Part shown: one piece after another, positions 1-30,108 of the stretch
How the letters are laid out: each line of letters opens with the position of its first letter
How positions within the stretch are numbered: position 1 is the first letter of the stretch
Origin: Stramenopiles sp. TOSAG23-6
Taxonomy: Eukaryota
NCBI GenBank assembly: GCA_900128565.1
Contig: LT635950.1
Coordinates: forward strand, 1-34,728
Direction of reading: 5' to 3'
Length of the DNA: 34,728 bases
Position numbers and translations under genes: made by a program
The notes under the pieces: model-generated
Databases searched by the model: none
Told to the model about the DNA's origin: nothing
The model's input: the letters and a program-made list of their open reading frames with translations, nothing else

Positions 1-143
1 ACGTTTACGCACCATCAATTTCGAATGTTTTTTTCTAGATAATCCAAATCCGATGTATTTTTTTGTTTGGTTTTTGTACGTATTTTTTTATTATAAAAAT
101 TTGTACCTAACAAAAAAAAATGACATATTTTTTTACAAAACAT

Positions 144-2735
144 TGGAGCATTGCAAGTAAGACCACCAATTGATGTATCCGTGTGTACTCAAGAATATTT
201 ACATGACCTTTATAAAAAAGATGTTAAAGTGATGTATGTTTTCATAATGAATTTTAAATTTATTTTTTTTGGTACGAAATTTTGTACCTAAACAAAGAAT
301 TTTTTTTTTGGAATATATTTTCATAATGAATTTCAATTTTTTTTTTCCGTACAATTTTTTTTTGTACTTTATGAATTTCAAAATGTAAAACATATTTTTT
401 CAAAATACATGCAATGGTTGTCTTTTGGTACAAACACTTTTCTGCCTGTTCAATTAATTGATTTGGAGTTACCACTTAAATCTCTAGATGAAAAAGACTG
501 TTCTACTACGACTACTACTAATAATAATAATAAGAAGAAGAATACAAATGATTCTACTACTATTACTACTAATAATAATACTATTACTACTACTACTAAT
601 AATAATACAAATGATTCTACTACTATTACTAATAATAATAATAATAATACAAATGATTCTACTACTACTACTACTAATAATAATAATAATACAAAGGATA
701 ATATTTTCTTAACTAAGCAATTGAATTGCAACTTAAGCGTATCATGGGACAGTGCGACTGCATCATTATTACGATTTCTGGGAATAGCAAATAGTGATAA
801 AGAGCATGGTATTATTGATGATATAGTAAACAAAACTGTTGATCAAAACAAATTTCATAATTATTATTCTGAAAATCGGTATGAAAATATCTGGTCTAAA
901 AAGCTTCGTACCATTTTAGTACAGATAGCTTGTGAAGGATCAGTAACACATACTACAAAAGTAAATGCAGCTGTTCAAGCATCAGAATTATTAGCAGGTT
1001 TATGCCCTCCACTGATGGAACGTCAACACAATATAGGTGAAAAGAATACAAACCCTAACCCCAATCATTTATCATCAAATATACGAAATACTCCAAATAA
1101 TATTTCCATAAATTATTCACCAAGTACAGATTTTACTACAAATTCAACAAAATCTTTATTATTAACACCTTTTCCACAAGTTCGTATTGGTTCTCCATTA
1201 ACTAATAAAACGAATCGAAGACGATCAAAATCTTTAAATTCAGAAAATGATCATATTAAAAAAGAAAAAACAGTTACAAAATTTGATGATGATGATTTTT
1301 CATTATCGGATAGTGGTAACAAAACTAACCATCACGAAACACCTGTTCAGTTTAGTTTATTCACTAATGATAATAATGATAATTCTACCATGAATGATAA
1401 AAGTCGGAAACGGTTTAGCAGTGCAATGTCGAATATCTCAAATATGTCAATGGAAAGTGATGTAGTTCAAATTGCTAGAGAGCAGTACGTTTTCATCATA
1501 ANTATTTTTTTTNAGAGTCTCTATGCTTTTTCATCATTAATTTTAAATGTATTTATTCATTTTTTTATAACATGAACTTTGGAATGTAACATATTTTTTC
1601 ACAATACATATACAGTAAAGGTATCATCAATGAAGAGGAACTTGACCAAGTTGTAGAGGCAGACCGTCGATGTAGTATTAATGACAACATAGATGGAATG
1701 AAACCAATACACTTATTACATGAATCAGACCAATTAAATGAGTCTTTAGAAGTGAATAATAAATTTCAAAAAAACAATTTAAAATATGAAAAACAAATTG
1801 TACCACCGACTCCACCGCCAACAACAACACGTCCACCACCACCAAGACTTCAAAAAAATGGTATTTCTTTTTCTGGTATCACAATTCGATGGCCTGATGT
1901 TTTAGGTGCAACACAATATGAAGTTCAAATTGGTCATCGATATATGTACGTTTTTCATCATTTAATTTCAAATTTATTATTTTTGTACTGAATCCAAAAG
2001 AATTCAAAAGTTACAAAAACTAACAAATGTTCAATTTGACATTTTTTTCCATAGTTCATTGGGGGTTGGCGTACAGCTGGTGGGGTAAGTAGTATAACAG
2101 CTGCAGCATTTGATAAAGATGATGCAATGAATAATACAGAATTCGATACGAAGGATGATGATAATATATCGAATTCTTTAGTACATTCGCATACCACTCC
2201 AACACGAAATACAGAAAACATACAAAACACACAAAAAACTCTAAAAAACTCTAAAAAAAAAAGTTCGATTACAAGAGCAACCAGTATAACAATAAATACA
2301 TTTTTAATACGTGGTCACTTATTAGAACGAGGGCGTAAGTACATTTGTCGCGTACGAGCTTTTTCAGTATTAGGTGGTTGGAGTGATTATAGCCGAGCAA
2401 GTGACGTCATTGCTTATGAAGGTTTTCCAATACCTGCACCACCAGCTAAAACAATTATTATTCCAGTTTCTCCAAAGGATGACACTGAAAAAATTCAGAT
2501 TTCATTAGGTACGAAACTTCGTACATATCAGCCCAAGTCTAAAGATCAAACAGAAAATAAGAAAAATAATAAAGTAACAACTTCATCTGAAGAACAGGAT
2601 AGCAAAACCCTAACCATAAGACAAACAAATAATAACAGCCCGAATAAAGATGATTCAAATAGTATCAATATTTCAGGTGACGTAAGTGATAGCGGATATA
2701 GCGAATTTGATGAAGATGCAATTCTTGATTTTTAA
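144..2735 (+). CDS. PDZ/FN3 protein, 3' part (copy 1). Exons 144-233, 411-1484, 1610-1945, 2060-2735
   Basis: ORFs 409..1575, 1698..1991 and 2127..2735 are joined in frame by GT-AT introns. FN3 motif spans the last two exons. Thr/Asn low-complexity tract present. Confidence 0.72.
234..410 (+). other. Putative GT-AT intron (177 nt, phase 2)
   Basis: gtg at|GTATGTTTTCATAATG...CATATTTTTTCAAAATACAT|g caa. The next downstream AG (468) is out of phase. Confidence 0.78.
503..692 (+). repeat. Coding (ACT)n/(AAT)n trinucleotide minisatellite encoding Thr/Asn runs
   Basis: Repeated aatacaaatgattctactactattactaataat units encoding NTNDSTTITNNN. Confidence 0.9.
1485..1609 (+). other. Putative GT-AT intron (125 nt, phase 2)
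   Basis: gag ca|GTACGTTTTCATCAT...CATATTTTTTCACAATACAT|a tac carries the 20-nt 3' motif. An in-frame CAG lies 6 nt further (1615), so canonical use is possible here. Confidence 0.65.
1946..2059 (+). other. Putative GT-AT intron (114 nt, phase 2)
   Basis: tat at|GTACGTTTTTCATCAT...ACTAAC...CATTTTTTTCCATAGTTCAT|t ggg. The TAG ending at 2054 would frameshift. The AT ending at 2059 gives FN3-like YEVQIGHRYIGGW. Confidence 0.8.
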
Positions 2736-2925
2736 TACGCTTCTTAATAAAACAATATTATCAATATCATATGTATTTTATTAGTTTTATTATGGCTGCC
2801 CAATCAAAGGTATATATTACCTATGACCCACTCAATATATAACGTATATAACTCAAAATATAATAGTGAAAACTTTCTGTATAGAAATAAGTTTCTATGG
2901 AACCCTGTGTAAAATTGATAGTCAT

Positions 2926-3126
2926 TCAATAAGTGCTAAAGTTACGAAAGCGAAAGCTTGGCATTAAACTCTTTGGTTGTTGAGGCTCACTTTCATGAGC
3001 TTCTAATTTCTTTGTTTTAATTAATGTTTTCGTTTTGGAAGGTGTTTCCATCGAAACAATACCAAAATAAAGACCAATTCCTATTAAAACAACAATACTA
3101 AATACTAGTGTTTTAAGACCAAACAT
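2926..3126 (-). CDS. Small putative single-pass membrane or secreted protein (66 aa from ATG)
   Basis: ATG in an A-rich context followed by hydrophobic LVFSIVVLIGIGLYFGIV and a polar tail. No recognised family. Copies at 13498-13698 +, 20679-20879 -, 31603-31803 +. Confidence 0.35.
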   Translation of the reverse strand: MFGLKTLVFSIVVLIGIGLYFGIVSMETPSKTKTLIKTKKLEAHESEPQQPKSLMPSFRFRNFSTY

Positions 3127-3457
3127 TTTTTTGACACTATTCGTCAAGAAATTATTAGATGAATCTCTCTATTAGTAAAATTATTGTAGTATAGTAGTGT
3201 ATCAATATGTAATACAGTGTATAGTCGTATATATAGTAGTACTGAATAGTAGTATATAGGATGAGGTAGTCTTTAATTTAACGCCGAGAGAAAAAAGAAA
3301 ATCACCGGATCTGAAAAAATACTTTTTTAAATACGGACTAGGGTTAGGGCTGGCATTTCCACGAAAAAAGTTTCAAAAAACATCACGAGTGGGTACCCCG
3401 AAGTATACTGCAAATTGTGTACTAGCACTAAGTTTTCTAAAGTATTCGTTTACACAA

Positions 3458-4620
3458 ATGGCATTACAATCAAATAAAATCTCAAAAGAGAATGATTCAT
3501 TACAATCAAATAAAATCTCAAAAGAGAATGATTCAAGTTTCCCACGTCCTCCTCTGCCACATGTAAAGTTACAAACTTCGTCTGCTACAGTCATAGTTTG
3601 CTTACATGGGGGTCATATTACCTCTTGGACGCTAAATGGCAGTGAAATTCTCTTTCTTAGTGAAAAAGCGGTGTTCAAACCTCCAAAAGCAATTCGTGGT
3701 GGAATACCTATATGCTTCCCTCAATTTAGTGATTGTGGACCAATGAAGAAAAGTCATGGGTTTGCACGGACGTTGACATGGACTCATGATAGTGACATCA
3801 TACAACATAGAAATGATAAAGACGAAATAACTTCATGTTCAACTTCGTTGTCTCTTTCCACATTTGTAAAAAGTTGGCCTTACAAGTATAACTTAAAAAT
3901 GCATATTTCAATTACTGAAAACACTTTACAACAAGATTTAATTGTAACAAACAATGGAAAACAAAAATTTGAGTTTACTGCTGTAATTTTACCTTCAATG
4001 ATTTTTTAATTTTTAATTTAAGATTTTCCAAATCTAATATTTCATATATTTTATTGGATACATCATTATCATACAGGCTCTTCATACATATTTTCGTCTA
4101 AACACCAATGCTACAAAGGTTAATGGATTACTTGGATGTACATATTTGGATTCCTTGGATAATCGAACACGAAAAACAGAAAGTGAAAAAGAAATTACAA
4201 TTGAAAATGAGATGGATCGGATTTATCTAAATGCACCTTCAAATATTATTTTACAAGACGATACAACTTGTATCAATGTGTTTTCGGATCATTCATCGAA
4301 TACAAATAATACACAAGGATTTCGTGATGGTGTATTGTGGAATCCTTGGATTGAAAAATCAAAACGCATGTTGGTTTTTCTTACATTTAAAATTATGGTT
4401 AGGGTTAGGGGTTACCCCTCATTTTTTTTTCTACGAAATTTTTACCTAACAAATTTTAAACTTTAAACATATTTTTGTACAAAACATGACTGATTTAAAT
4501 GATGATGAATATCATAATATGATATGTTACGAAGTCGCTCAAATAAATAATAAAATTGTGCTTGACGTTGGCGAAGAGTGGAAAGGATCACAAAAAATTG
4601 TTGTTTCGAAAGTGAAATAA
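3458..4620 (+). CDS. Glucose-6-phosphate 1-epimerase (D-hexose-6-phosphate mutarotase, aldose 1-epimerase family), 316 aa. Exons 3458-3982, 4077-4369, 4488-4620
   Basis: Family motifs LHGGHITSW, LFLSEKAVFKPPKAIRGGIPICFPQF, HGFAR, FTA|ALHTYF, EMDRIY, WNPWIEKSKRM|TDLNDDEYHNMICYE and GEEWKG. Confidence 0.93.
3464..3535 (+). repeat. Perfect 36-bp tandem duplication (LQSNKISKENDS x2)
   Basis: ttacaatcaaataaaatctcaaaagagaatgattca occurs twice in tandem. Confidence 0.95.
3983..4076 (+). other. Canonical GT-AG intron (94 nt, phase 0) in epimerase
   Basis: gct|GTAATT...CTAAT...TACAG|gct restores the conserved FTAALHTYF. Confidence 0.9.
4370..4487 (+). other. Non-canonical GT-AT intron (118 nt, phase 2) in epimerase
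   Basis: cgc at|GTTGGTTTTT...CCTAAC...CATATTTTTGTACAAAACAT|g act gat restores KRMTDLNDDEY. No usable AG acceptor. Confidence 0.87.
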
Positions 4621-4703
4621 ATTTATAATTTTTAAAGTCATAATATTGTGTTTTTTGAAAATATTTCATCCATTGGGAGGGTTACGTAGGGTTTTATAAT
4701 TTT

Positions 4704-7263
4704 TTAATCATTATATTGTGTTTTTTGAAAATATTTCATCCATTGAGTTGAACAGCCTCGAGCATTATTGATAATTTTTGTCTTTTGTTTCGTTCTTTGA
4801 CGTTTATGTTTTGCATTTGCTAGTTTGATCTTTGCTAAATTATCATCAAATTTGCTTTTTTTATTTCGTGTTTTTTTACTTTGTCGTGGTACTGCCGGAT
4901 GTCGACTTTTTAAATTATGTGGTACTAAAATTACCTTTTTGTTTTTTTTCTCTTTTCCATTTTGATTTGATGTACTATTTAATGTACTATTTAATTCTCT
5001 ACGAATTGAAGTCTTGGTGTCGTATTTCGTTTTTTCTTCATCGCTCTCATCGTCTGTGACTAATACTTCTTTCAAACCTCGATCAAATAATTCCGATTTC
5101 CTTTCAAATTCTTTTTGTCGTGCAACTCGACGAGGATGCGGTGCTAACTTAGATCCAAGTTGATTTGCTAATAAATAAACATCACCACGCTCCCCACTGC
5201 CAAATGTACAACTTGGTGCTCTTTTAAATCGGGAGTCAAAATGTGAAACAACTTTATCAGGAAAATTTGCAGTTGTTGTTTCAGAATATGATGTAGACAC
5301 ACATATTTTGTGAAAAAATATGCCAAAAAAAAACAAAAATTCGTTAGGTATATAAAATTTGATACAAAAAAAATAATTTCGAAATTCATAATAAAAACAT
5401 ACCCATAGAATTATGAATTACTCGATATAAATCGTCTCTATCTGCAGCACCAAAATCATGATCACATGAAGATTTTCGACGTTTTGCTGCTGCATTATCA
5501 AAAGTTGATGTTACAATTGTAGAGTCGTGCTGATCACTTTTATCTATAAACTGAACAGTATTTAAAACATTTGACAATTTCTCACAATCTTCTCGACTTG
5601 ATTTTCCAAAATCAACACGAGAGGGTGTTCGAAAGCGTGAGTTATGTGTAGTGTAAAATACTTTATGGTAATCAATACTATCATTCACTTGAGACATATC
5701 CTGTGGTAATAAAGCACCTAAATCATTGTGTCGTTTATAAATATCAGATCGTTTTGATTTTCCAAAATCAACAGACGGTGGATTAGGTACACGTGAATTA
5801 TGTTTGGTATAGAATACCTTATTATAATCAACAGAATCACCAAACTCTGACATATCACGAGGTCGAAGTCCACCAAGCAGATTTGCTTGTTTTAACATAT
5901 CATCTCTTGTTGAAGCACCAAAATCAACAGACGGTGGATTAGGTACACGTGAATTATGTTTGGTATAGAATACCTTATTATAATCAACAGAATCACCAAA
6001 CTCTGACATATCACGAGGTCGAAGTCCACCAAGTAGATTTGCATGTTTTAACATCTCTTCTCGGCTTGAAGCACCAAAATCAACACGTGAGGGTGTTCGA
6101 AAACGTGAGTTATGTTCCGTTGTAAACGCTTTATTATAATCTATGGAGTCATTGAACTCTGACATATCTCTAGGTAGTAATGCTCCTAAATCATTATTAC
6201 GAAATTTTATGTCGTCTCGTTGTGAAACACCAAAATCAACACGAGAGGGTGTTCGAAAGCGTGAGTTATGTGTAGTGTAAAATACTTTATGGTAATCAAC
6301 ACTATCATTCACTTGAGACTTATCCTGTGGTAATAAAGCACCTAAATCATTGTGTCGTTTATAAATATCAGATCTTTTTGATTTTCCAAAATCAACAGAT
6401 GGTGGATTAGGTACACGTGAATTATGTTTTGTGTAGAATACCTTATTATAGTCAACTGAATCAATTTCGTCGGATTTATCAATCACACGAGCACCAGGCA
6501 TGCCTGTGGCTAATTTCGCTGCAGAAATTCTTGAAGATGCTCCAAAATCAACACGTGATGGTGTTCGAAAACGTGAGTTATGTTCCGTTGTAAACGCTTT
6601 ATTATAATCTATGGAATCCCCGAATTCTGACATATCTCTAGGTAATGTTTGTTCTAATTCATTGTGTCGTTTATAAATATCAGATCGTTTTGATTTTCCA
6701 AAATCAACAGACGGTGGATTAGGTACACGTGAATTATGTTTGGTATAGAATACCTTATTATAATCAACAGAATCACCAAACTCTGACATATCACGAGGTC
6801 GAAGTCCACCAAGCAGATTTGCTTGTTTTAACATATCATCTCTTGTTGAAGCACCAAAATCAACAGACGGTGGATTAGGTACACGTGAATTATGTTTGGT
6901 ATAGAATACCTTATTATAATCAACAGAATCACCAAACTCTGACATATCACGAGGTCGAAGTCCACCAAGCAGATTTGCATGTTTTAACATATCATCTCGA
7001 CTAGAGGCACCAAAATCCACAGAAGGGGCATTCGGTGTTCGAGATTCTGAATATGTCACTCGTTTTTTGGTGTTTTTGGAAGAAGAGGCTTGTTCTGAAA
7101 AAAAATGTTTTAACTTTTCATCTGCCAACTGTCCTTTTCGTGTTCTTTCATCCAGAGATTTTTTGTAATTGGTTTGTGCAGACTTTGTACGCCTTGCTAT
7201 TGACTCTCTTTCATGCCTTGGGAATGTTTTGTTTGTATCTGGTGACGAATTTGGGCGATTCAT
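4704..7263 (-). CDS. 52-aa tandem-repeat protein (819 aa). Exons 7263-5403, 5302-4704. Function unknown, possibly cytoskeletal or ciliary
   Basis: 625-aa ORF with DFG motifs every 156 bp, joined to the 210-aa ORF by a GT-AT intron. An 11th degenerate repeat spans the junction. Confidence 0.82.
5303..5402 (-). other. Putative GT-AT intron (100 nt, phase 1) in repeat-protein gene (11222-11321 + in copy 2)
   Basis: atg g|GTATGTTTTTATTATG...CCTAAC...CATATTTTTTCACAAAATAT|gt gtg gives a 50-aa DFG-to-TFG unit, against 33 aa with the first in-frame AAG. Confidence 0.78.
5449..7017 (-). repeat. Coding tandem array, 10 x 156 bp
   Basis: In copy 2 the GAT of DFG falls at 9607, 9763, 9919, 10075, 10231, 10387, 10543, 10699, 10855, 11011 and 11167, an exact 156-nt period. 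Confidence 0.95.
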
Positions 7264-7549
7264 TTCGTACTTTTTCCGTGAACACAGAGGGAAATAATAG
7301 CACTTGGTGCCAGCAGAAGTAATTTTTTTTTTGAAACGTTATCCTTATTTTTTAACGTACGATACAATTTTTAGATTTCGATTGATTTCGTGTTTTCAAA
7401 CATCATTTTTGTGACTGAGTCTTTCTTTGACGTGTCCGGTGGTGGCCAAACACAAAACAATGTCTACTTTTTAGTCCACAATATCATGATCATACTACGT
7501 TGTACATTGTTCAAAGGTAATTAACATAATTGTATTTAACACAACAATT

Positions 7550-8284
7550 ATGTTGGATATCCGTTTGTATAGTAAAAAAAAGAAAAAAAAGAAACGTGGA
7601 GCAAGAGGAAAGAAGAAAAAAACAGGTCCAAAGTCAAAAAGTCAACAAAACTCTCAAATTGTATCCCAGCAACATCCTGCAAACAAAACAGCATTAATTT
7701 CAGATCACATTTTACCATTACATAATTTATATGATGATAAACATGTGTGTTCTAAACCCAATTCAAATATATATTTGGTTGATAAAAACAAAATCGTGTC
7801 CAAAGCAGTAAAAAAAGAGAGTTTTTCAAAGAATCAAACCTCTGTAAAAAAAGAGAGTTTTTCAAAGAATCAAACCTCAGTAAAAAAAGAGAGTTTTTCA
7901 AAGAATCAAACCTCCTTGACTGAAAAAAAAACATATATTGTCTAGAGAGGAACCTTCTTATTCTACTTCATCATATTCTCTCGACTGGAAAACAACACAT
8001 AGTATATCTCAAAAACATCACTATAACTGGGCATCCAAACACAAGATATTACATACTATTGACACTATTGACAACAAAACTGTAGATTTGTTGAACGAGA
8101 ATAAATGGCATTACGAAAGTAATGCACCTAAAAATACAATTGTAATTGAAAAGCCTAACCCTATCGATGTTGATGTATTTGATACTGATTTAGAAGTAAT
8201 TGGTGATACACTACGTACATTAACACAACAAGATTCATATTGTTTGCCTTCTTTGTTATTACAAGATTGTTCGTTAGGTACAAA
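7550..8284 (+). CDS. Lys-rich hypothetical protein, frameshifted near 7931-7945 and 3'-truncated by the unit end (may be a pseudogene or sequencing error)
   Basis: ORFs 7550..7945 and 7938..8339 overlap in adjacent frames next to an A9 run. Basic NLS-like N-terminus and 3x VKKESFSKNQTS. Copies at 8340-9074 -, 25303-26092 +, 26390-27179 -. Confidence 0.45.
7808..7915 (+). repeat. 3 x 36-bp coding tandem repeat (VKKESFSKNQTS)
   Basis: gtaaaaaaagagagtttttcaaagaatcaaacctcN three times. Confidence 0.95.
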
Positions 8285-8298
8285 ATTTGGTACAGATT

Positions 8299-8299
<1 letters not shown>

Positions 8300-8334
<35 letters not shown>
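8300..8334 (+). repeat. Poly(A) tract at unit end
   Basis: About 35 consecutive A, adjacent to both inversion junctions. Confidence 0.95.
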
Positions 8335-8337
<3 letters not shown>

Positions 8338-9360
8338 AATTTGTACCTAACGAACAATCTTGTAATAACAAAGAAGGCAAACAATATGAATCTTGTTGTG
8401 TTAATGTACGTAGTGTATCACCAATTACTTCTAAATCAGTATCAAATACATCAACATCGATAGGGTTAGGCTTTTCAATTACAATTGTATTTTTAGGTGC
8501 ATTACTTTCGTAATGCCATTTATTCTCGTTCAACAAATCTACAGTTTTGTTGTCAATAGTGTCAATAGTATGTAATATCTTGTGTTTGGATGCCCAGTTA
8601 TAGTGATGTTTTTGAGATATACTATGTGTTGTTTTCCAGTCGAGAGAATATGATGAAGTAGAATAAGAAGGTTCCTCTCTAGACAATATATGTTTTTTTT
8701 TCAGTCAAGGAGGTTTGATTCTTTGAAAAACTCTCTTTTTTTACTGAGGTTTGATTCTTTGAAAAACTCTCTTTTTTTACAGAGGTTTGATTCTTTGAAA
8801 AACTCTCTTTTTTTACTGCTTTGGACACGATTTTGTTTTTATCAACCAAATATATATTTGAATTGGGTTTAGAACACACATGTTTATCATCATATAAATT
8901 ATGTAATGGTAAAATGTGATCTGAAATTAATGCTGTTTTGTTTGCAGGATGTTGCTGGGATACAATTTGAGAGTTTTGTTGACTTTTTGACTTTGGACCT
9001 GTTTTTTTCTTCTTTCCTCTTGCTCCACGTTTCTTTTTTTTCTTTTTTTTACTATACAAACGGATATCCAACATAATTGTTGTGTTAAATACAATTATGT
9101 TAATTACCTTTGAACAATGTACAACGTAGTATGATCATGATATTGTGGACTAAAAAGTAGACATTGTTTTGTGTTTGGCCACCACCGGACACGTCAAAGA
9201 AAGACTCAGTCACAAAAATGATGTTTGAAAACACGAAATCAATCGAAATCTAAAAATTGTATCGTACGTTAAAAAATAAGGATAACGTTTCAAAAAAAAA
9301 ATTACTTCTGCTGGCACCAAGTGCTATTATTTCCCTCTGTGTTCACGGAAAAAGTACGAA

Positions 9361-11920
9361 ATGAATCGCCCAAATTCGTCACCAGATACAAACAAAACAT
9401 TCCCAAGGCATGAAAGAGAGTCAATAGCAAGGCGTACAAAGTCTGCACAAACCAATTACAAAAAATCTCTGGATGAAAGAACACGAAAAGGACAGTTGGC
9501 AGATGAAAAGTTAAAACATTTTTTTTCAGAACAAGCCTCTTCTTCCAAAAACACCAAAAAACGAGTGACATATTCAGAATCTCGAACACCGAATGCCCCT
9601 TCTGTGGATTTTGGTGCCTCTAGTCGAGATGATATGTTAAAACATGCAAATCTGCTTGGTGGACTTCGACCTCGTGATATGTCAGAGTTTGGTGATTCTG
9701 TTGATTATAATAAGGTATTCTATACCAAACATAATTCACGTGTACCTAATCCACCGTCTGTTGATTTTGGTGCTTCAACAAGAGATGATATGTTAAAACA
9801 AGCAAATCTGCTTGGTGGACTTCGACCTCGTGATATGTCAGAGTTTGGTGATTCTGTTGATTATAATAAGGTATTCTATACCAAACATAATTCACGTGTA
9901 CCTAATCCACCGTCTGTTGATTTTGGAAAATCAAAACGATCTGATATTTATAAACGACACAATGAATTAGAACAAACATTACCTAGAGATATGTCAGAAT
10001 TCGGGGATTCCATAGATTATAATAAAGCGTTTACAACGGAACATAACTCACGTTTTCGAACACCATCACGTGTTGATTTTGGAGCATCTTCAAGAATTTC
10101 TGCAGCGAAATTAGCCACAGGCATGCCTGGTGCTCGTGTGATTGATAAATCCGACGAAATTGATTCAGTTGACTATAATAAGGTATTCTACACAAAACAT
10201 AATTCACGTGTACCTAATCCACCATCTGTTGATTTTGGAAAATCAAAAAGATCTGATATTTATAAACGACACAATGATTTAGGTGCTTTATTACCACAGG
10301 ATAAGTCTCAAGTGAATGATAGTGTTGATTACCATAAAGTATTTTACACTACACATAACTCACGCTTTCGAACACCCTCTCGTGTTGATTTTGGTGTTTC
10401 ACAACGAGACGACATAAAATTTCGTAATAATGATTTAGGAGCATTACTACCTAGAGATATGTCAGAGTTCAATGACTCCATAGATTATAATAAAGCGTTT
10501 ACAACGGAACATAACTCACGTTTTCGAACACCCTCACGTGTTGATTTTGGTGCTTCAAGCCGAGAAGAGATGTTAAAACATGCAAATCTACTTGGTGGAC
10601 TTCGACCTCGTGATATGTCAGAGTTTGGTGATTCTGTTGATTATAATAAGGTATTCTATACCAAACATAATTCACGTGTACCTAATCCACCGTCTGTTGA
10701 TTTTGGTGCTTCAACAAGAGATGATATGTTAAAACAAGCAAATCTGCTTGGTGGACTTCGACCTCGTGATATGTCAGAGTTTGGTGATTCTGTTGATTAT
10801 AATAAGGTATTCTATACCAAACATAATTCACGTGTACCTAATCCACCGTCTGTTGATTTTGGAAAATCAAAACGATCTGATATTTATAAACGACACAATG
10901 ATTTAGGTGCTTTATTACCACAGGATATGTCTCAAGTGAATGATAGTATTGATTACCATAAAGTATTTTACACTACACATAACTCACGCTTTCGAACACC
11001 CTCTCGTGTTGATTTTGGAAAATCAAGTCGAGAAGATTGTGAGAAATTGTCAAATGTTTTAAATACTGTTCAGTTTATAGATAAAAGTGATCAGCACGAC
11101 TCTACAATTGTAACATCAACTTTTGATAATGCAGCAGCAAAACGTCGAAAATCTTCATGTGATCATGATTTTGGTGCTGCAGATAGAGACGATTTATATC
11201 GAGTAATTCATAATTCTATGGGTATGTTTTTATTATGAATTTCGAAATTATTTTTTTTGTATCAAATTTTATATACCTAACGAATTTTTGTTTTTTTTTG
11301 GCATATTTTTTCACAAAATATGTGTGTCTACATCATATTCTGAAACAACAACTGCAAATTTTCCTGATAAAGTTGTTTCACATTTTGACTCCCGATTTAA
11401 AAGAGCACCAAGTTGTACATTTGGCAGTGGGGAGCGTGGTGATGTTTATTTATTAGCAAATCAACTTGGATCTAAGTTAGCACCGCATCCTCGTCGAGTT
11501 GCACGACAAAAAGAATTTGAAAGGAAATCGGAATTATTTGATCGAGGTTTGAAAGAAGTATTAGTCACAGACGATGAGAGCGATGAAGAAAAAACGAAAT
11601 ACGACACCAAGACTTCAATTCGTAGAGAATTAAATAGTACATTAAATAGTACATCAAATCAAAATGGAAAAGAGAAAAAAAACAAAAAGGTAATTTTAGT
11701 ACCACATAATTTAAAAAGTCGACATCCGGCAGTACCACGACAAAGTAAAAAAACACGAAATAAAAAAAGCAAATTTGATGATAATTTAGCAAAGATCAAA
11801 CTAGCAAATGCAAAACATAAACGTCAAAGAACGAAACAAAAGACAAAAATTATCAATAATGCTCGAGGCTGTTCAACTCAATGGATGAAATATTTTCAAA
11901 AAACACAATATAATGATTAA
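9361..11920 (+). CDS. 52-aa tandem-repeat protein (copy 2). Exons 9361-11221, 11322-11920
   Basis: Inverted copy of 4704-7263. Confidence 0.8.
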
Positions 11921-12003
11921 AAAATTATAAAACCCTACGTAACCCTCCCAATGGATGAAATATTTTCAAAAAACACAATATTATGACTTTAAAAATTATA
12001 AAT

Positions 12004-13166
12004 TTATTTCACTTTCGAAACAACAATTTTTTGTGATCCTTTCCACTCTTCGCCAACGTCAAGCACAATTTTATTATTTATTTGAGCGACTTCGTAACAT
12101 ATCATATTATGATATTCATCATCATTTAAATCAGTCATGTTTTGTACAAAAATATGTTTAAAGTTTAAAATTTGTTAGGTAAAAATTTCGTAGAAAAAAA
12201 AATGAGGGGTAACCCCTAACCCTAACCATAATTTTAAATGTAAGAAAAACCAACATGCGTTTTGATTTTTCAATCCAAGGATTCCACAATACACCATCAC
12301 GAAATCCTTGTGTATTATTTGTATTCGATGAATGATCCGAAAACACATTGATACAAGTTGTATCGTCTTGTAAAATAATATTTGAAGGTGCATTTAGATA
12401 AATCCGATCCATCTCATTTTCAATTGTAATTTCTTTTTCACTTTCTGTTTTTCGTGTTCGATTATCCAAGGAATCCAAATATGTACATCCAAGTAATCCA
12501 TTAACCTTTGTAGCATTGGTGTTTAGACGAAAATATGTATGAAGAGCCTGTATGATAATGATGTATCCAATAAAATATATGAAATATTAGATTTGGAAAA
12601 TCTTAAATTAAAAATTAAAAAATCATTGAAGGTAAAATTACAGCAGTAAACTCAAATTTTTGTTTTCCATTGTTTGTTACAATTAAATCTTGTTGTAAAG
12701 TGTTTTCAGTAATTGAAATATGCATTTTTAAGTTATACTTGTAAGGCCAACTTTTTACAAATGTGGAAAGAGACAACGAAGTTGAACATGAAGTTATTTC
12801 GTCTTTATCATTTCTATGTTGTATGATGTCACTATCATGAGTCCATGTCAACGTCCGTGCAAACCCATGACTTTTCTTCATTGGTCCACAATCACTAAAT
12901 TGAGGGAAGCATATAGGTATTCCACCACGAATTGCTTTTGGAGGTTTGAACACCGCTTTTTCACTAAGAAAGAGAATTTCACTGCCATTTAGCGTCCAAG
13001 AGGTAATATGACCCCCATGTAAGCAAACTATGACTGTAGCAGACGAAGTTTGTAACTTTACATGTGGCAGAGGAGGACGTGGGAAACTTGAATCATTCTC
13101 TTTTGAGATTTTATTTGATTGTAATGAATCATTCTCTTTTGAGATTTTATTTGATTGTAATGCCAT
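12004..13166 (-). CDS. Glucose-6-phosphate 1-epimerase (copy 2)
   Basis: Inverted copy of 3458-4620. Confidence 0.88.
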
Positions 13167-13888
13167 TTGTGTAAACGAATACTTTAGAAAACTTAGTGCT
13201 AGTACACAATTTGCAGTATACTTCGGGGTACCCACTCGTGATGTTTTTTGAAACTTTTTTCGTGGAAATGCCAGCCCTAACCCTAGTCCGTATTTAAAAA
13301 AGTATTTTTTCAGATCCGGTGATTTTCTTTTTTCTCTCGGCGTTAAATTAAAGACTACCTCATCCTATATACTACTATTCAGTACTACTATATATACGAC
13401 TATACACTGTATTACATATTGATACACTACTATACTACAATAATTTTACTAATAGAGAGATTCATCTAATAATTTCTTGACGAATAGTGTCAAAAAAATG
13501 TTTGGTCTTAAAACACTAGTATTTAGTATTGTTGTTTTAATAGGAATTGGTCTTTATTTTGGTATTGTTTCGATGGAAACACCTTCCAAAACGAAAACAT
13601 TAATTAAAACAAAGAAATTAGAAGCTCATGAAAGTGAGCCTCAACAACCAAAGAGTTTAATGCCAAGCTTTCGCTTTCGTAACTTTAGCACTTATTGAAT
13701 GACTATCAATTTTACACAGGGTTCCATAGAAACTTATTTCTATACAGAAAGTTTTCACTATTATATTTTGAGTTATATACGTTATATATTGAGTGGGTCA
13801 TAGGTAATATATACCTTTGATTGGGCAGCCATAATAAAACTAATAAAATACATATGATATTGATAATATTGTTTTATTAAGAAGCGTA

Positions 13889-16800
13889 TTAAAAATCAAG
13901 AATTGCATCTTCATCAAATTCGCTATATCCGCTATCACTTACGTCACCTGAAATATTGATACTATTTGAATCATCTTTATTCGGGCTGTTATTATTTGTT
14001 TGTCTTATGGTTAGGGTTTTGCTATCCTGTTCTTCAGATGAAGTTGTTACTTTATTATTTTTCTTATTTTCTGTTTGATCTTTAGACTTGGGCTGATATG
14101 TACGAAGTTTCGTACCTAATGAAATCTGAATTTTTTCAGTGTCATCCTTTGGAGAAACTGGAATAATAATTGTTTTAGCTGGTGGTGCAGGTATTGGAAA
14201 ACCTTCATAAGCAATGACGTCACTTGCTCGGCTATAATCACTCCAACCACCTAATACTGAAAAAGCTCGTACGCGACAAATGTACTTACGCCCTCGTTCT
14301 AATAAGTGACCACGTATTAAAAATGTATTTATTGTTATACTGGTTGCTCTTGTAATCGAACTTTTTTTTTTAGAGTTTTTTAGAGTTTTTTGTGTGTTTT
14401 GTATGTTTTCTGTATTTCGTGTTGGAGTGGTATGCGAATGTACTAAAGAATTCGATATATTATCATCATCCTTCGTATCGAATTCTGTATTATTCATTGC
14501 ATCATCTTTATCAAATGCTGCAGCTGTTATACTACTTACCCCACCAGCTGTACGCCAACCCCCAATGAACTATGGAAAAAAATGTCAAATTGAACATTTG
14601 TTAGTTTTTGTAACTTTTGAATTCTTTTGGATTCAGTACAAAAATAATAAATTTGAAATTAAATGATGAAAAACGTACATATATCGATGACCAATTTGAA
14701 CTTCATATTGTGTTGCACCTAAAACATCAGGCCATCGAATTGTGATACCAGAAAAAGAAATACCATTTTTTTGAAGTCTTGGTGGTGGTGGACGTGTTGT
14801 TGTTGGCGGTGGAGTCGGTGGTACAATTTGTTTTTCATATTTTAAATTGTTTTTTTGAAATTTATTATTCACTTCTAAAGACTCATTTAATTGGTCTGAT
14901 TCATGTAATAAGTGTATTGGTTTCATTCCATCTATGTTGTCATTAATACTACATCGACGGTCTGCCTCTACAACTTGGTCAAGTTCCTCTTCATTGATGA
15001 TACCTTTACTGTATATGTATTGTGAAAAAATATGTTACATTCCAAAGTTCATGTTATAAAAAAATGAATAAATACATTTAAAATTAATGATGAAAAAGCA
15101 TAGAGACTCTNAAAAAAAATANTTATGATGAAAACGTACTGCTCTCTAGCAATTTGAACTACATCACTTTCCATTGACATATTTGAGATATTCGACATTG
15201 CACTGCTAAACCGTTTCCGACTTTTATCATTCATGGTAGAATTATCATTATTATCATTAGTGAATAAACTAAACTGAACAGGTGTTTCGTGATGGTTAGT
15301 TTTGTTACCACTATCCGATAATGAAAAATCATCATCATCAAATTTTGTAACTGTTTTTTCTTTTTTAATATGATCATTTTCTGAATTTAAAGATTTTGAT
15401 CGTCTTCGATTCGTTTTATTAGTTAATGGAGAACCAATACGAACTTGTGGAAAAGGTGTTAATAATAAAGATTTTGTTGAATTTGTAGTAAAATCTGTAC
15501 TTGGTGAATAATTTATGGAAATATTATTTGGAGTATTTCGTATATTTGATGATAAATGATTGGGGTTAGGGTTTGTATTCTTTTCACCTATATTGTGTTG
15601 ACGTTCCATCAGTGGAGGGCATAAACCTGCTAATAATTCTGATGCTTGAACAGCTGCATTTACTTTTGTAGTATGTGTTACTGATCCTTCACAAGCTATC
15701 TGTACTAAAATGGTACGAAGCTTTTTAGACCAGATATTTTCATACCGATTTTCAGAATAATAATTATGAAATTTGTTTTGATCAACAGTTTTGTTTACTA
15801 TATCATCAATAATACCATGCTCTTTATCACTATTTGCTATTCCCAGAAATCGTAATAATGATGCAGTCGCACTGTCCCATGATACGCTTAAGTTGCAATT
15901 CAATTGCTTAGTTAAGAAAATATTATCCTTTGTATTATTATTATTATTAGTAGTAGTAGTAGTAGAATCATTTGTATTATTATTATTATTATTAGTAATA
16001 GTAGTAGAATCATTTGTATTATTATTAGTAGTAGTAGTAATAGTATTATTATTAGTAGTAATAGTAGTAGAATCATTTGTATTCTTCTTCTTATTATTAT
16101 TATTAGTAGTAGTCGTAGTAGAACAGTCTTTTTCATCTAGAGATTTAAGTGGTAACTCCAAATCAATTAATTGAACAGGCAGAAAAGTGTTTGTACCAAA
16201 AGACAACCATTGCATGTATTTTGAAAAAATATGTTTTACATTTTGAAATTCATAAAGTACAAAAAAAAATTGTACGGAAAAAAAAAATTGAAATTCATTA
16301 TGAAAATATATTCCAAAAAAAAAATTCTTTGTTTAGGTACAAAATTTCGTACCAAAAAAAATAAATTTAAAATTCATTATGAAAACATACATCACTTTAA
16401 CATCTTTTTTATAAAGGTCATGTAAATATTCTTGAGTACACACGGATACATCAATTGGTGGTCTTACTTGCAATGCTCCAATGTTTTGTAAAAAAATATG
16501 TCATTTTTTTTTGTTAGGTACAAATTTTTATAATAAAAAAATACGTACAAAAACCAAACAAAAAAATACATCGGATTTGGATTATCTAGAAAAAAACATT
16601 CGAAATTGATGGTGCGTAAACGTACATAGATGCTAATGCTATGGCTGTAGGTAATGTAATTGGAATACATCCAGTGATATTCATCATAGTTGAACTATTT
16701 GTTTTTGAATGTATCGTTTTAGATGTAGATCCCAAATTCAACATGCTTGAACGTCTTAATTTTGGTGTTGTATTCTTACTTGTATTTAACATACTTGAAC

Positions 16801-17753
16801 TTCTTGGTTTTGGTGTTGTAGTATTAGTATTAGTATAATGTGAAAATGTATCATCATTGGTATGCAAATTCGATATTAAGTCACTATTGAATTTTGTAAC
16901 TAAAGATTTTTTTGTACCTAATGAATTTCGAATTTGTTGTGACTCTTCACTTAAACCTGCTCGTCGCATTGCTAACATCTCCATAGCATCTCGCATTTGT
17001 TTAAGCTCAATCTCTTGTGCAGCAATTCGATTTTCTTGAGCAATAATGCGCAATTGTAAAGCTTTTTGCATTTGACACGTGTCATTACTATTAGGGTTAT
17101 CGATGTTTGAGTCAGGAGAATGAAATGAAAGTTGAGAATTTCGAGAGTACCGTGGTGATATTGGTGGTGTTGTTGGTGGTGATGGCATTTGTTTCATTAT
17201 CTCTTGTGGTGACTTATTTAGTGTATTTCGTGTTTTATACGACATCGTAGAATCATTGTCCATCATTAAAGTAGTAAATTCAATAGTCCGTTGATACATA
17301 TTTCGTTCATGTATTGTGGAAAAATATGTTGTATTTGAAAATTGTCAATAAAAAATCCTTAGGTACAAAATGTGGCGCAAAAATATAAATAAAAATTGTT
17401 ACGTACGAAATTTACGAAATTTCATACGAAAAATACATAAATTTAAAATTCATGATGAAAACGTACATGTAAATACTCCACAATATCTGCAAATTTCCAA
17501 TGTAAAACTTTTGTACTATCAATTGTTTGTATCCACATTCCAGGTGATACACCCTTTTTCTTTAACTCATTAATTCTATTGAGTACAGTAGTCACTGTGT
17601 TATTTCGTGTTTTATTACTAGGGTTAGGATTTCCCACAATTTTTGTAGGCGTTTTTTTGCCTTCATTAAAATTTTCAATCTGCGCTCCTCTTCTATGCAA
17701 ACCACACTTTAATTGCAAACCCAATGCACCAGAAGGGACATTAACAATAACAG
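13889..17753 (-). CDS. PDZ-domain and fibronectin type III domain protein, 5'-partial. Exons 17753-17467, 17308-16626, 16480-16391, 16213-15140, 15014-14679, 14564-13889 (most complete copy)
   Basis: N-terminal VIVNVPSGALGLQL...GVSPGMWIQTIDSTKVLHWKFADIVEYLH|ERNMYQRTIEF resembles a PDZ fold (GLGL-type loop, alphaB, betaF). C-terminal ITIRWPDVLGATQYEVQ...GGW...LERGRKYICRVRAFSVLGGWSDYS matches the FN3 pattern. Five GT-AT introns join all ORF segments in frame to TAA. Domain calls are by eye. Confidence 0.75.
16481..16625 (-). other. Putative GT-AT intron (145 nt, phase 2); positions 1-143 are this intron minus its first GT
   Basis: tct at|GTACGTTTAC...CCTAAC...CATATTTTTTTACAAAACAT|t gga gives ALAS-I-GALQ. 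An in-frame AAG 18 nt downstream is an alternative acceptor. Confidence 0.72.
17309..17466 (-). other. Putative non-canonical GT-AT intron (158 nt, phase 0)
   Basis: Minus strand cat|GTACGTTTTCATCATG...CATATTTTTCCACAATACAT|gaa joins EYLH to ERNMYQ within the PDZ-like domain. The internal AAG (17358) is out of frame. Confidence 0.8.
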
Positions 17754-17896
17754 ACGTTTACGCACCATCAATTTCGAATGTTTTTTTCTAGATAATCCAA
17801 ATCCGATGTATTTTTTTGTTTGGTTTTTGTACGTATTTTTTTATTATAAAAATTTGTACCTAACAAAAAAAAATGACATATTTTTTTACAAAACAT

Positions 17897-20488
17897 TGGA
17901 GCATTGCAAGTAAGACCACCAATTGATGTATCCGTGTGTACTCAAGAATATTTACATGACCTTTATAAAAAAGATGTTAAAGTGATGTATGTTTTCATAA
18001 TGAATTTTAAATTTATTTTTTTTGGTACGAAATTTTGTACCTAAACAAAGAATTTTTTTTTTGGAATATATTTTCATAATGAATTTCAATTTTTTTTTTC
18101 CGTACAATTTTTTTTTGTACTTTATGAATTTCAAAATGTAAAACATATTTTTTCAAAATACATGCAATGGTTGTCTTTTGGTACAAACACTTTTCTGCCT
18201 GTTCAATTAATTGATTTGGAGTTACCACTTAAATCTCTAGATGAAAAAGACTGTTCTACTACGACTACTACTAATAATAATAATAAGAAGAAGAATACAA
18301 ATGATTCTACTACTATTACTACTAATAATAATACTATTACTACTACTACTAATAATAATACAAATGATTCTACTACTATTACTAATAATAATAATAATAA
18401 TACAAATGATTCTACTACTACTACTACTAATAATAATAATAATACAAAGGATAATATTTTCTTAACTAAGCAATTGAATTGCAACTTAAGCGTATCATGG
18501 GACAGTGCGACTGCATCATTATTACGATTTCTGGGAATAGCAAATAGTGATAAAGAGCATGGTATTATTGATGATATAGTAAACAAAACTGTTGATCAAA
18601 ACAAATTTCATAATTATTATTCTGAAAATCGGTATGAAAATATCTGGTCTAAAAAGCTTCGTACCATTTTAGTACAGATAGCTTGTGAAGGATCAGTAAC
18701 ACATACTACAAAAGTAAATGCAGCTGTTCAAGCATCAGAATTATTAGCAGGTTTATGCCCTCCACTGATGGAACGTCAACACAATATAGGTGAAAAGAAT
18801 ACAAACCCTAACCCCAATCATTTATCATCAAATATACGAAATACTCCAAATAATATTTCCATAAATTATTCACCAAGTACAGATTTTACTACAAATTCAA
18901 CAAAATCTTTATTATTAACACCTTTTCCACAAGTTCGTATTGGTTCTCCATTAACTAATAAAACGAATCGAAGACGATCAAAATCTTTAAATTCAGAAAA
19001 TGATCATATTAAAAAAGAAAAAACAGTTACAAAATTTGATGATGATGATTTTTCATTATCGGATAGTGGTAACAAAACTAACCATCACGAAACACCTGTT
19101 CAGTTTAGTTTATTCACTAATGATAATAATGATAATTCTACCATGAATGATAAAAGTCGGAAACGGTTTAGCAGTGCAATGTCGAATATCTCAAATATGT
19201 CAATGGAAAGTGATGTAGTTCAAATTGCTAGAGAGCAGTACGTTTTCATCATAANTATTTTTTTTNAGAGTCTCTATGCTTTTTCATCATTAATTTTAAA
19301 TGTATTTATTCATTTTTTTATAACATGAACTTTGGAATGTAACATATTTTTTCACAATACATATACAGTAAAGGTATCATCAATGAAGAGGAACTTGACC
19401 AAGTTGTAGAGGCAGACCGTCGATGTAGTATTAATGACAACATAGATGGAATGAAACCAATACACTTATTACATGAATCAGACCAATTAAATGAGTCTTT
19501 AGAAGTGAATAATAAATTTCAAAAAAACAATTTAAAATATGAAAAACAAATTGTACCACCGACTCCACCGCCAACAACAACACGTCCACCACCACCAAGA
19601 CTTCAAAAAAATGGTATTTCTTTTTCTGGTATCACAATTCGATGGCCTGATGTTTTAGGTGCAACACAATATGAAGTTCAAATTGGTCATCGATATATGT
19701 ACGTTTTTCATCATTTAATTTCAAATTTATTATTTTTGTACTGAATCCAAAAGAATTCAAAAGTTACAAAAACTAACAAATGTTCAATTTGACATTTTTT
19801 TCCATAGTTCATTGGGGGTTGGCGTACAGCTGGTGGGGTAAGTAGTATAACAGCTGCAGCATTTGATAAAGATGATGCAATGAATAATACAGAATTCGAT
19901 ACGAAGGATGATGATAATATATCGAATTCTTTAGTACATTCGCATACCACTCCAACACGAAATACAGAAAACATACAAAACACACAAAAAACTCTAAAAA
20001 ACTCTAAAAAAAAAAGTTCGATTACAAGAGCAACCAGTATAACAATAAATACATTTTTAATACGTGGTCACTTATTAGAACGAGGGCGTAAGTACATTTG
20101 TCGCGTACGAGCTTTTTCAGTATTAGGTGGTTGGAGTGATTATAGCCGAGCAAGTGACGTCATTGCTTATGAAGGTTTTCCAATACCTGCACCACCAGCT
20201 AAAACAATTATTATTCCAGTTTCTCCAAAGGATGACACTGAAAAAATTCAGATTTCATTAGGTACGAAACTTCGTACATATCAGCCCAAGTCTAAAGATC
20301 AAACAGAAAATAAGAAAAATAATAAAGTAACAACTTCATCTGAAGAACAGGATAGCAAAACCCTAACCATAAGACAAACAAATAATAACAGCCCGAATAA
20401 AGATGATTCAAATAGTATCAATATTTCAGGTGACGTAAGTGATAGCGGATATAGCGAATTTGATGAAGATGCAATTCTTGATTTTTAA
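17897..20488 (+). CDS. PDZ/FN3 protein, 3' part (copy 3)
   Basis: Copy of 144-2735. Confidence 0.65.
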
Positions 20489-21210
20489 TACGCTTCTTAA
20501 TAAAACAATATTATCAATATCATATGTATTTTATTAGTTTTATTATGGCTGCCCAATCAAAGGTATATATTACCTATGACCCACTCAATATATAACGTAT
20601 ATAACTCAAAATATAATAGTGAAAACTTTCTGTATAGAAATAAGTTTCTATGGAACCCTGTGTAAAATTGATAGTCATTCAATAAGTGCTAAAGTTACGA
20701 AAGCGAAAGCTTGGCATTAAACTCTTTGGTTGTTGAGGCTCACTTTCATGAGCTTCTAATTTCTTTGTTTTAATTAATGTTTTCGTTTTGGAAGGTGTTT
20801 CCATCGAAACAATACCAAAATAAAGACCAATTCCTATTAAAACAACAATACTAAATACTAGTGTTTTAAGACCAAACATTTTTTTGACACTATTCGTCAA
20901 GAAATTATTAGATGAATCTCTCTATTAGTAAAATTATTGTAGTATAGTAGTGTATCAATATGTAATACAGTGTATAGTCGTATATATAGTAGTACTGAAT
21001 AGTAGTATATAGGATGAGGTAGTCTTTAATTTAACGCCGAGAGAAAAAAGAAAATCACCGGATCTGAAAAAATACTTTTTTAAATACGGACTAGGGTTAG
21101 GGCTGGCATTTCCACGAAAAAAGTTTCAAAAAACATCACGAGTGGGTACCCCGAAGTATACTGCAAATTGTGTACTAGCACTAAGTTTTCTAAAGTATTC
21201 GTTTACACAA

Positions 21211-22373
21211 ATGGCATTACAATCAAATAAAATCTCAAAAGAGAATGATTCATTACAATCAAATAAAATCTCAAAAGAGAATGATTCAAGTTTCCCACGT
21301 CCTCCTCTGCCACATGTAAAGTTACAAACTTCGTCTGCTACAGTCATAGTTTGCTTACATGGGGGTCATATTACCTCTTGGACGCTAAATGGCAGTGAAA
21401 TTCTCTTTCTTAGTGAAAAAGCGGTGTTCAAACCTCCAAAAGCAATTCGTGGTGGAATACCTATATGCTTCCCTCAATTTAGTGATTGTGGACCAATGAA
21501 GAAAAGTCATGGGTTTGCACGGACGTTGACATGGACTCATGATAGTGACATCATACAACATAGAAATGATAAAGACGAAATAACTTCATGTTCAACTTCG
21601 TTGTCTCTTTCCACATTTGTAAAAAGTTGGCCTTACAAGTATAACTTAAAAATGCATATTTCAATTACTGAAAACACTTTACAACAAGATTTAATTGTAA
21701 CAAACAATGGAAAACAAAAATTTGAGTTTACTGCTGTAATTTTACCTTCAATGATTTTTTAATTTTTAATTTAAGATTTTCCAAATCTAATATTTCATAT
21801 ATTTTATTGGATACATCATTATCATACAGGCTCTTCATACATATTTTCGTCTAAACACCAATGCTACAAAGGTTAATGGATTACTTGGATGTACATATTT
21901 GGATTCCTTGGATAATCGAACACGAAAAACAGAAAGTGAAAAAGAAATTACAATTGAAAATGAGATGGATCGGATTTATCTAAATGCACCTTCAAATATT
22001 ATTTTACAAGACGATACAACTTGTATCAATGTGTTTTCGGATCATTCATCGAATACAAATAATACACAAGGATTTCGTGATGGTGTATTGTGGAATCCTT
22101 GGATTGAAAAATCAAAACGCATGTTGGTTTTTCTTACATTTAAAATTATGGTTAGGGTTAGGGGTTACCCCTCATTTTTTTTTCTACGAAATTTTTACCT
22201 AACAAATTTTAAACTTTAAACATATTTTTGTACAAAACATGACTGATTTAAATGATGATGAATATCATAATATGATATGTTACGAAGTCGCTCAAATAAA
22301 TAATAAAATTGTGCTTGACGTTGGCGAAGAGTGGAAAGGATCACAAAAAATTGTTGTTTCGAAAGTGAAATAA
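21211..22373 (+). CDS. Glucose-6-phosphate 1-epimerase (copy 3)
   Basis: Direct copy of 3458-4620. Confidence 0.88.
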
Positions 22374-22456
22374 ATTTATAATTTTTAAAGTCATAATATT
22401 GTGTTTTTTGAAAATATTTCATCCATTGGGAGGGTTACGTAGGGTTTTATAATTTT

Positions 22457-26051: not shown

Positions 26052-26090
<39 letters not shown>

Positions 26091-26092
26091 AA

Positions 26093-26389
26093 NNNNNNNN
26101 NNNNNNNNNNNNNNNNNNNNNNNNNNNNNNNNNNNNNNNNNNNNNNNNNNNNNNNNNNNNNNNNNNNNNNNNNNNNNNNNNNNNNNNNNNNNNNNNNNNN
26201 NNNNNNNNNNNNNNNNNNNNNNNNNNNNNNNNNNNNNNNNNNNNNNNNNNNNNNNNNNNNNNNNNNNNNNNNNNNNNNNNNNNNNNNNNNNNNNNNNNNN
26301 NNNNNNNNNNNNNNNNNNNNNNNNNNNNNNNNNNNNNNNNNNNNNNNNNNNNNNNNNNNNNNNNNNNNNNNNNNNNNNNNNNNNNNNNN
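26093..26389. other. Scaffold gap (N run) between inverted copies 3 and 4
   Basis: Continuous n characters. Confidence 0.99.
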
Positions 26390-26391
26390 TT

Positions 26392-26430
<39 letters not shown>

Positions 26431-30025: not shown

Positions 30026-30108
30026 AAAATTATAAAACCCTACGTAACCCTCCCAATGGATGAAATATTTTCAAAAAACACAATATTATGACTTTAAAAA
30101 TTATAAAT

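Follow-up and report, generated by a model that had tools for sequence, protein, structure and literature searches.

Three genes on a contig of Stramenopiles sp. TOSAG23-6 (LT635950.1, assembly GCA_900128565.1; the 34,728 nt analysed here are referred to as the window) are interrupted by seven AT-rich segments, I1 to I7, each of which begins with GT and ends with AT. Each of the seven is a copy of a single multi-copy, AT-rich element of 100–177 nt that makes up an introner-like family, and on the evidence of reading frames, homology and selection we consider it probable that all seven are removed from transcripts as introns running from the GT to the AT. An earlier note on this DNA, made from its letters and a list of open frames, had described seven interruptions starting with GT[A/T][C/T/G]GTTT and ending with AT. 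All are present where it placed them and its coordinates and ends were right; what it did not recognize was that the interruptions are copies of a single element, and that the scaffold carrying them is palindromic and fourfold redundant.

Gene 1, which encodes an orphan protein of at least 1000 residues, contains I1 (234–410, forward strand, 177 nt, phase 2), I2 (1485–1609, forward, 125 nt, phase 2, with two N at 1502 and 1513), I3 (1946–2059, forward, 114 nt, phase 2, a divergent copy), I6 (16481–16625, reverse strand, 145 nt, phase 2, GTACGTTT...TACAAAACAT) and I7 (17309–17466, reverse, 158 nt, phase 0, GTACGTTT...CCACAATACAT). I4 (4370–4487, forward, 118 nt, phase 2, GTTGGTTT...TACAAAACAT) interrupts a glucose-6-phosphate 1-epimerase gene, and I5 (5303–5402, reverse, 100 nt, phase 1, GTATGTTT...CACAAAATAT) interrupts gene 3, which encodes a repeat protein. 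The first eight bases are GTATGTTT in I1 and I5, GTACGTTT in I2, I3, I6 and I7, and GTTGGTTT in I4; the donor hexamer, which is compatible with U1 and U6, is GTATGT or GTACGT in six of the seven copies and GTTGGT in I4. At the 3' end the canonical AG is replaced by AT throughout (CAT in six copies, TAT in I5). The G+C content of the segments is 0.17–0.25, against 0.335 in the exons, and a run of T residues lies upstream of the 3' end in every copy. The 3' end is further defined by a 20-nt tail, CATATTTTT-N9-AT (CAT(A/T)TTTTT-N9-AT), which is exact in six copies and has one mismatch in I3, so placed that exactly 20 nt separate the start of CAT(A/T)TTTTT from the proposed cut in 7/7. This tail motif occurs 37 times in the window against 6.9 expected, a count inflated by the presence of each arm of the scaffold about four times; per unique copy there are six exact occurrences and one with a single mismatch. 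The CTAAC that the earlier note had seen in four copies is there (I3, I4, I5 and I6), at a recounted distance of 33–41 nt instead of 34–42. The eighth intron that it had counted, at 3983–4076 on the forward strand (94 nt, epimerase gene), is canonical GT-AG and stands outside the repeat family.

When aligned, the seven segments share a 5' block, GTAYGTTTTCATMATGAATTTYAAATTTAT (30 nt), a core, GTACGAAATTTTGTACCTAAC (GTAC...GTACCTAAC), and the 20-nt 3' tail. Contigs from other sequencing runs, of which X3 is an independent DNA run and X6, X7 and X10 are RNA runs, show the 3' edge of the repeat: 13 contigs of X3 lose similarity to the window exactly after position 1609 and five after 1610, as do four X7 contigs at 1609, so that the edge of the repeat coincides exactly with the cut proposed for I2. 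Bins with element copies had summed depths of 28.8, 37 and 141, against 0–11 elsewhere. The family is plentiful beyond the window. The family thus resembles introners in being present as many similar copies in one genome (seven in 9.4 kb, together with the loose ends in X3 and the raised depth) and in lying within genes, in sense orientation, as exactly removable pieces (7/7, with I4 and I5 anchored by homology). Directly before the GT, an AT is found in 5/7 copies, where its frequency in exons is 0.108 (P about 2.5e-4), and two further copies, seen as loose ends in contigs of other runs, also read AT|GTACG. A 3-bp target duplication was ruled out, as it fits only 2/7 copies. I1 contains an internal duplication of 33 nt (235–267 and 314–346, 88% identical) in which the inner donor, GTATGT, has decayed to ATATAT; as this composite of two copies shows, nesting or duplication of copies can occur and be followed by loss of the inner donor. 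A scan of metagenomes with the degenerate 20-nt motif returned 119 loci, all chance-like: each held one match, 117/119 had no upstream 5' motif, and none had family-like sequence. Two scans of viral contigs with stricter motifs gave no match.

Removal of the motif-defined GT..AT segment joins the flanking open frames at all seven sites, as had been claimed from the sequence, with a single open frame running through each junction. Restoration of frame in 7/7 cases by random phase has a probability of (1/3)^7, about 5e-4, and reading through any of the donors leads to a stop after 14–94 nt. Alternative splice sites were sought from -60 to +21 around the donor and from -36 to +75 around the acceptor. 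Within this range, neither I6 nor I7 offers another GT/GC-AG pair in frame (the AG nearest downstream of I6, at +5, is out of frame) and I1 has no in-frame AG that can be used with the conserved donor. In-frame GT-AG alternatives with the conserved donor exist for I2 (+6), I3 (+30 and +33) and I5 (+51), of which homology rejects that of I5 only. For I4 the list of alternatives is partial, the natural stop of the gene falling inside the tested range, and the matter is settled by homology.

Two of the junctions can be checked against related proteins. In an alignment with four glucose-6-phosphate 1-epimerases, exon 2 of the epimerase gene ends at column 306 (…IEKSKR) and exon 3 starts at column 308 (TDLNDDEYHNMICYE…), and the split Met codon, ATG, created by removal of I4 fills column 307 without a gap relative to the four homologues. 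The flanks of I4 (exon …CGCAT, intron …AACAT) are such that the same mRNA would result from GT-AT, TG-CA, AT-AC or CA-AA cuts. A database model of this epimerase, P0001, runs on into I4 (LVFLTFKIMVRVR) and picks up again at an AG within exon 3 (window 4370–4560), thereby losing the conserved TDLNDDEYHNMICYE stretch and gaining unrelated residues; it is evidently a mis-spliced model, forced to canonical sites. For I5, the only relative found, P0054 (691 residues, 35% identity, with the same C-terminal …QW(V/M)KYFQ… end), is colinear to within one residue: the alignment runs up to residue 524 of P0054 in the upstream exon and resumes at residue 530 in the downstream exon, leaving six residues here against five there. 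The split codon, G|GT, is the conserved Gly of a recurring N-x-L-G repeat motif. The AG alternative at +51 was ruled out here, as the 17 residues that it would delete resemble the repeat consensus (YS…PDKV…) and are homologous coding sequence. At I5 the same mRNA would be obtained from GT-AT, TA-TG or AT-GT cuts, and the pairs allowed at I4 and at I5 therefore have only GT-AT in common. At I2 (…GCA|GTA…CAT|ATA…) no shift of the cut is possible. The earlier assertion that GT and AT are the shared termini therefore stands, GT..AT being the only terminal pair that fits all seven copies.

Comparison with contigs of the other runs spanned positions 1515–8300 and so covered I3, I4, I5 and the 3' end of I2. 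The window and these contigs, some of which have depths below 5 and may carry errors, differ at 22 positions, 14 of them coding (gene 1 exons e and f, and the large exon of gene 3). Twelve of the 14 coding differences are synonymous and the other two are conservative (D>E and V>I); the remaining eight comprise one in I3, four between genes and three at 7481–7500. This excess of silent third-position changes, which is unlike that expected of errors or pseudogenes, indicates that the genes are under selection. The worry that raw reads might show AG where the assembly has AT can be set aside, since the X3 contigs match the window with no difference at those bases: one (record 4) spans the 3' end of I2, and another (record 5, 1906–2398) contains the whole of I3 at the same site and with the same ends, with one internal difference, in a run of a later year. 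The insertions are thus common to samples taken years apart. Contigs from RNA libraries cover parts of gene 1, the 5' region of the epimerase gene and gene 3.

Our current working model is that the element inserts into coding exons in sense orientation and leaves the transcript as an intron. The element comes with a good donor of the U2 type (GTAYGTTT), a T-rich tract and the conserved tail, and in many copies also with a branch-like CTAAC; the excised piece would run from GT to the terminal (C/T)AT. To judge by the AT that precedes 5/7 copies, insertion may take place at AT and duplicate these 2 bp, so that the 3' splice dinucleotide would be the duplicated target; after insertion the exonic AT would be free to change (as to CA at I2 and GG at I5), whereas the intronic AT would be held by splicing. 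An acceptor set by distance, and not by scanning for AG, is suggested by the constant 20-nt spacing and by the AG passed over in I3.

The wider proposal, that in this lineage an introner family spread through the genome is routinely spliced at a YAT acceptor lying a fixed 20 nt from CATATTTTT and not at AG, is one that we put forward only tentatively and with some doubt. If true, it would mean that a standard GT donor is here, for the first time, matched with a non-AG acceptor used systematically; it would also imply changed second-step or U2AF-type recognition, and could explain faulty canonical-only gene models such as P0001. The description in the earlier note of a 'dominant class' of introns and of a lineage that routinely splices at YAT amounts to extrapolation from one repeat family in about 9.4 kb of unique DNA.

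Several observations weigh against removal of the segments from GT to AT, beginning with the small amount of unique DNA seen, 9.4 kb. The upstream AT expected of a 2-bp duplication is missing in 2/7 copies, and reading of the ends of the seven copies showed no clear terminal inverted repeat, the ends having only GTA(Y)/(R)TAC in common. The in-frame GT-AG alternatives for I2 and I3 stand in gene 1, which has no homologues. I3 has a good CCATAG 5 nt before its proposed AT, which an AG-scanning spliceosome would be expected to use. No RNA contig (X6, X7 and X10, depth 2–6) bridges I3, I4, I5 or the 3' end of I2, and such missing cover is evidence neither way. One RNA contig (X7 record 20, 1602–1894) retains the last 8 nt of I2, and a second X7 contig includes one complete copy of the element, as the 40 letters between 1984 and 1584 show. 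These contigs that touch elements are therefore unspliced forms, an outcome that the earlier note had named as refuting its claim, and they lower our confidence; at depths of 2–6, however, they may be DNA carry-over or pre-mRNA, and neither retention of the elements nor a lack of splicing follows from them.

The same elements might also be removed with boundaries that vary from copy to copy, as AT-AC introns shifted 2 nt to the left in I1, I3, I4, I6 and I7, and at AG or cryptic sites in I2, I3 and possibly I5. In the five copies with an upstream AT, moving both cuts 2 nt to the left does give the same mRNA, and the shifted pair was recovered in the frame test for I7, I6 and I1; AT-AC is, moreover, an established compensating pair of terminal dinucleotides. 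For the others, there is the in-frame AG at +6 in I2, and in I3 those at +30 and +33 or the AG at -5, which is out of frame with the conserved donor and would be used with a donor at +4. We nevertheless regard this explanation as unlikely. After the shift I3 ends in TC and not AC, so AT-AC fits at most four copies; I2 (CA|GT) and I5 (GG|GT) are incompatible with it; and the near-consensus donor hexamer GTAYGT, present in 6/7 copies, would have no reason to start at intron position +3. For I5, homology rejects the AG alternative. The 3' AT is invariant (7/7) and the upstream AT is not (5/7), as would be expected of a downstream AT constrained as the splice signal, and the similarity among the copies stops exactly at that AT.

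Precise removal might instead proceed by a route other than ordinary spliceosomal recognition of a 3' splice site, either through pairing of intron ends as in euglenozoans and Amoebophrya or through excision at the DNA level. Amoebophrya (PMC7789003) and hemistasiid diplonemids (PMC12621601) have non-canonical introns that are repeated and carry direct and inverted repeats. In the present family the 5' end, GTATGTTTT, is able to pair with AAAACATAT just upstream of the T tract, and in I1 the first 12 bases are predicted to pair (12/12) with the last 30 (z = -3.2). Against this, folding of the other copies, six out of seven, is no better than that of shuffled sequences (z from -0.8 to +1.3), and the C/T change at donor position +4 is not matched by a compensating change opposite. 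The termini are conserved, unlike those of the non-conventional classes, in which variable termini go with extended pairing of the ends. The standard donor, the CTAAC site and the T tract favour the spliceosome, and the elements are carried in two independent DNA data sets, with no sign of DNA elimination. Such a route seems to us improbable. Excision of a TA-bounded piece was ruled out as I4 has no TA at its ends. A minor-spliceosome (U12-type) intron was likewise ruled out for want of both its motifs: the RTATCCTT donor is absent, as had been reported, with GT and not CC at +5/+6 in 7/7 copies, and the U12 branch motif, TCCTTAAC, which lies about 10–15 nt from the 3' end in introns of that type, does not occur within 25 nt of the 3' end in any of the seven; ACCTAAC sits 33–41 nt away.

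That the segments are not removed at all, being recent gene-breaking insertions or retained sequence whose restored frames are simply the pre-insertion state, would account by construction for the restoration of an old frame on removal of any insertion with one target copy, and for the unspliced RNA-library contigs, yet it is very improbable given that 12/14 coding differences between strains are synonymous, that an independent run made in a later year has I3 in the same place, with a single internal difference, that about 6.5 kb of exons stay open around copies that differ greatly among themselves, and that 7/7 copies are sense-oriented with an intact donor.

One arm of about 8.3 kb, repeated with 100% identity, makes the window a double palindrome, and the unique DNA amounts to about 9.4 kb (8340–17753), within which the seven GT-AT segments are seven distinct loci. 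Positions 1–8284 are a perfect inverted copy of 8340–16623; a unique piece of 1.1 kb (16624–17753) lies between arms; and the arm occurs a third time at 17754–26092 and a fourth, inverted, at 26390–34728, the last two being separated by a run of 297 N (26093–26389). I1 accordingly has an identical inverted copy at 16214–16390 on the reverse strand, and truncated duplicates of I6 are found on the forward strand at 1–143 and 17754–17896. The ends of the arms coincide with element sequence. One palindrome junction falls at ACGT, 2 nt inside the 5' end of I6, and the palindrome centre (8285–8339) lies in a hairpin-like GGTAC...GTACC piece followed by a run of about 47 A. The palindromes look like an amplification or assembly chimera seeded by palindromic motifs of the element; the names and sizes of the sequencing runs are suggestive of a small set of amplified DNA from seawater. 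Near the centre, at 8262–8300 on the forward strand, we also noted a reverse-oriented match to the element core (GTACCAAATTTTGTACCTAACGAAC on the reverse strand), within an open frame at 7920–8339; this core-like piece is without the family 3' tail and terminates at the palindrome centre. A search of 8340–17760 against Rfam gave no match. A telomere-like octamer, GGTTAGGG, occurs 20 times in the window (five per unique copy) where 0.16 would be expected, at positions 1053, 2608, 3342, 4397 and 4403 and their copies, that is, in gene 1 exons, within I4 and in one intergenic stretch. The host looks like an uncultured marine stramenopile (MAST) of the MAST-3 type, judging from the 'MAST3' in the source name (GSMAST32.ASY1.ANO1.1479.1) of a database protein that is 100% identical to an epimerase exon; on this ground the idea of a diplonemid host was abandoned.

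Gene 1 occupies 13889–17757 on the reverse strand, where its 5' end is cut by a scaffold junction. Its exons, a to f, are 17757–17467, 17308–16626, 16480–16391, 16213–15140, 15014–14679 and 14564–13889, the last four corresponding to 144–233, 411–1484, 1610–1945 and 2060–2735 on the forward arm. Exon e had no relatives in a search of 5.8 billion proteins (lengths 61–195 residues) and exon d none among 1.84 billion representatives, which places the junctions of I1, I2 and I3 beyond a homology check. A Pfam search with nine exon and open-frame translations gave nothing above the cut-offs. The epimerase gene lies at 3469–4620 on the forward strand (exons 3469–3982, 4077–4369 and 4488–4620), and its homologues carry precomputed PF01263 assignments. 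Between it and gene 1 there is a small open frame on the reverse strand (2926–3168) encoding 80 residues with one hydrophobic stretch, and RNA-library contigs overlap part of this stretch (3067–3351). Gene 3 lies at 4704–7263 on the reverse strand (exons 7263–5403 and 5302–4704, with the start taken as the first ATG) and is built of repeats of about 52 residues, corresponding to 156-nt tandem units. About nine or more of these, with the motif ...DSRF(R/K)xP...FGxSxRDD...N-x-L-G..., lie at 5562–7109; its relative P0054 came from a public run, and gene 3 matches no Pfam family.

Should RNA confirm removal from GT to AT, these genes would offer one element family with a textbook donor and an AT acceptor beside an ordinary GT-AG intron in the same gene, so that the choice of the 3' splice site would be isolated from every other splicing signal. 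This would bear on the reading of an intron's last two bases in the second catalytic step, on how the insertion of a transposon at a fixed target can make introns with the duplicated target as acceptor, and on how far spliceosomes bend before their components must change. Gene finders limited to GT/GC-AG would mis-model such genes.

Our search of the literature returned no paper on GT-AT introns or introners in MAST lineages, nor one on introners in which a standard donor is systematically combined with an AT acceptor. Three papers on MAST genomes do not mention unusual introns in their main texts, supplements aside: the word 'intron' occurs twice in one, both times in the methods (PMC5778133), and not at all in the other two (PMC12614181; PMC8163842). 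The earlier note knew of no genome in which GT-AT introns dominate; GT-AT introns and introns with a 3' AT nevertheless have precedents, in mammals (PMC1557818) and in Fritillaria (PMC13326754). In mammals GT-AT introns are rare and comprise U12-type introns (7/66 non-canonical U12 introns in the table given) and a conserved U2-type intron in DGCR2 (PMC1557818). They have the same terminal pair as the present segments and so establish that GT-AT can be spliced, but they are isolated single introns, the U12 ones with RTATCCTT donors, whereas here a repeat family has a U2-like donor and no U12 motifs. In Fritillaria borealis, introns ending in 3' AT or 3' AC are processed in vivo and are linked to introner transposons with weak sites, which shows that a spliceosome can adapt to non-AG ends (PMC13326754). 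In that animal, however, the rule is broken at both ends of about 95% of introns, with duplicated U2AF subunits involved (PMC13326754), whereas in the present protist host the donor is the standard GTAYGT and the acceptor alone departs.

The closest likeness in organization is to introners and related elements. Some introners, such as those of the Chrysochromulina type, bring only a 5' splice site with them, the 3' site being supplied by the target duplication (PMC9860276); the mechanism inferred here matches theirs. Common to these and to the present family are a short, AT-rich, multi-copy element that lies in genes in sense orientation with its own GT donor and no transposase inside, and restoration of the mRNA by removal of the element with a short flanking duplicate (PMC9860276). 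The introners described in the available part of that paper are GY-AG, with 0–50% GC and 0–40% GA donors and no non-AG acceptors reported there (PMC9860276), whereas the acceptor here is AT in 7/7; the putative duplication here is, in addition, only 2 bp and missing in 2/7 copies, and the splicing of the present copies is inferred. The introner elements of Amoebophrya are likewise repeated intron families in a marine protist, with short direct repeats across the exon–intron boundary that make the exact cut ambiguous (PMC7789003). They differ in having no conserved terminal dinucleotide and inverted repeats of 8–20 nt that pair the ends (PMC7789003), whereas the present family has invariant termini and shows no general pairing of its ends. 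GT-AT splicing itself is therefore already known, and what is probably new in these stramenopile genes is an introner family that combines a standard donor with AT ends.

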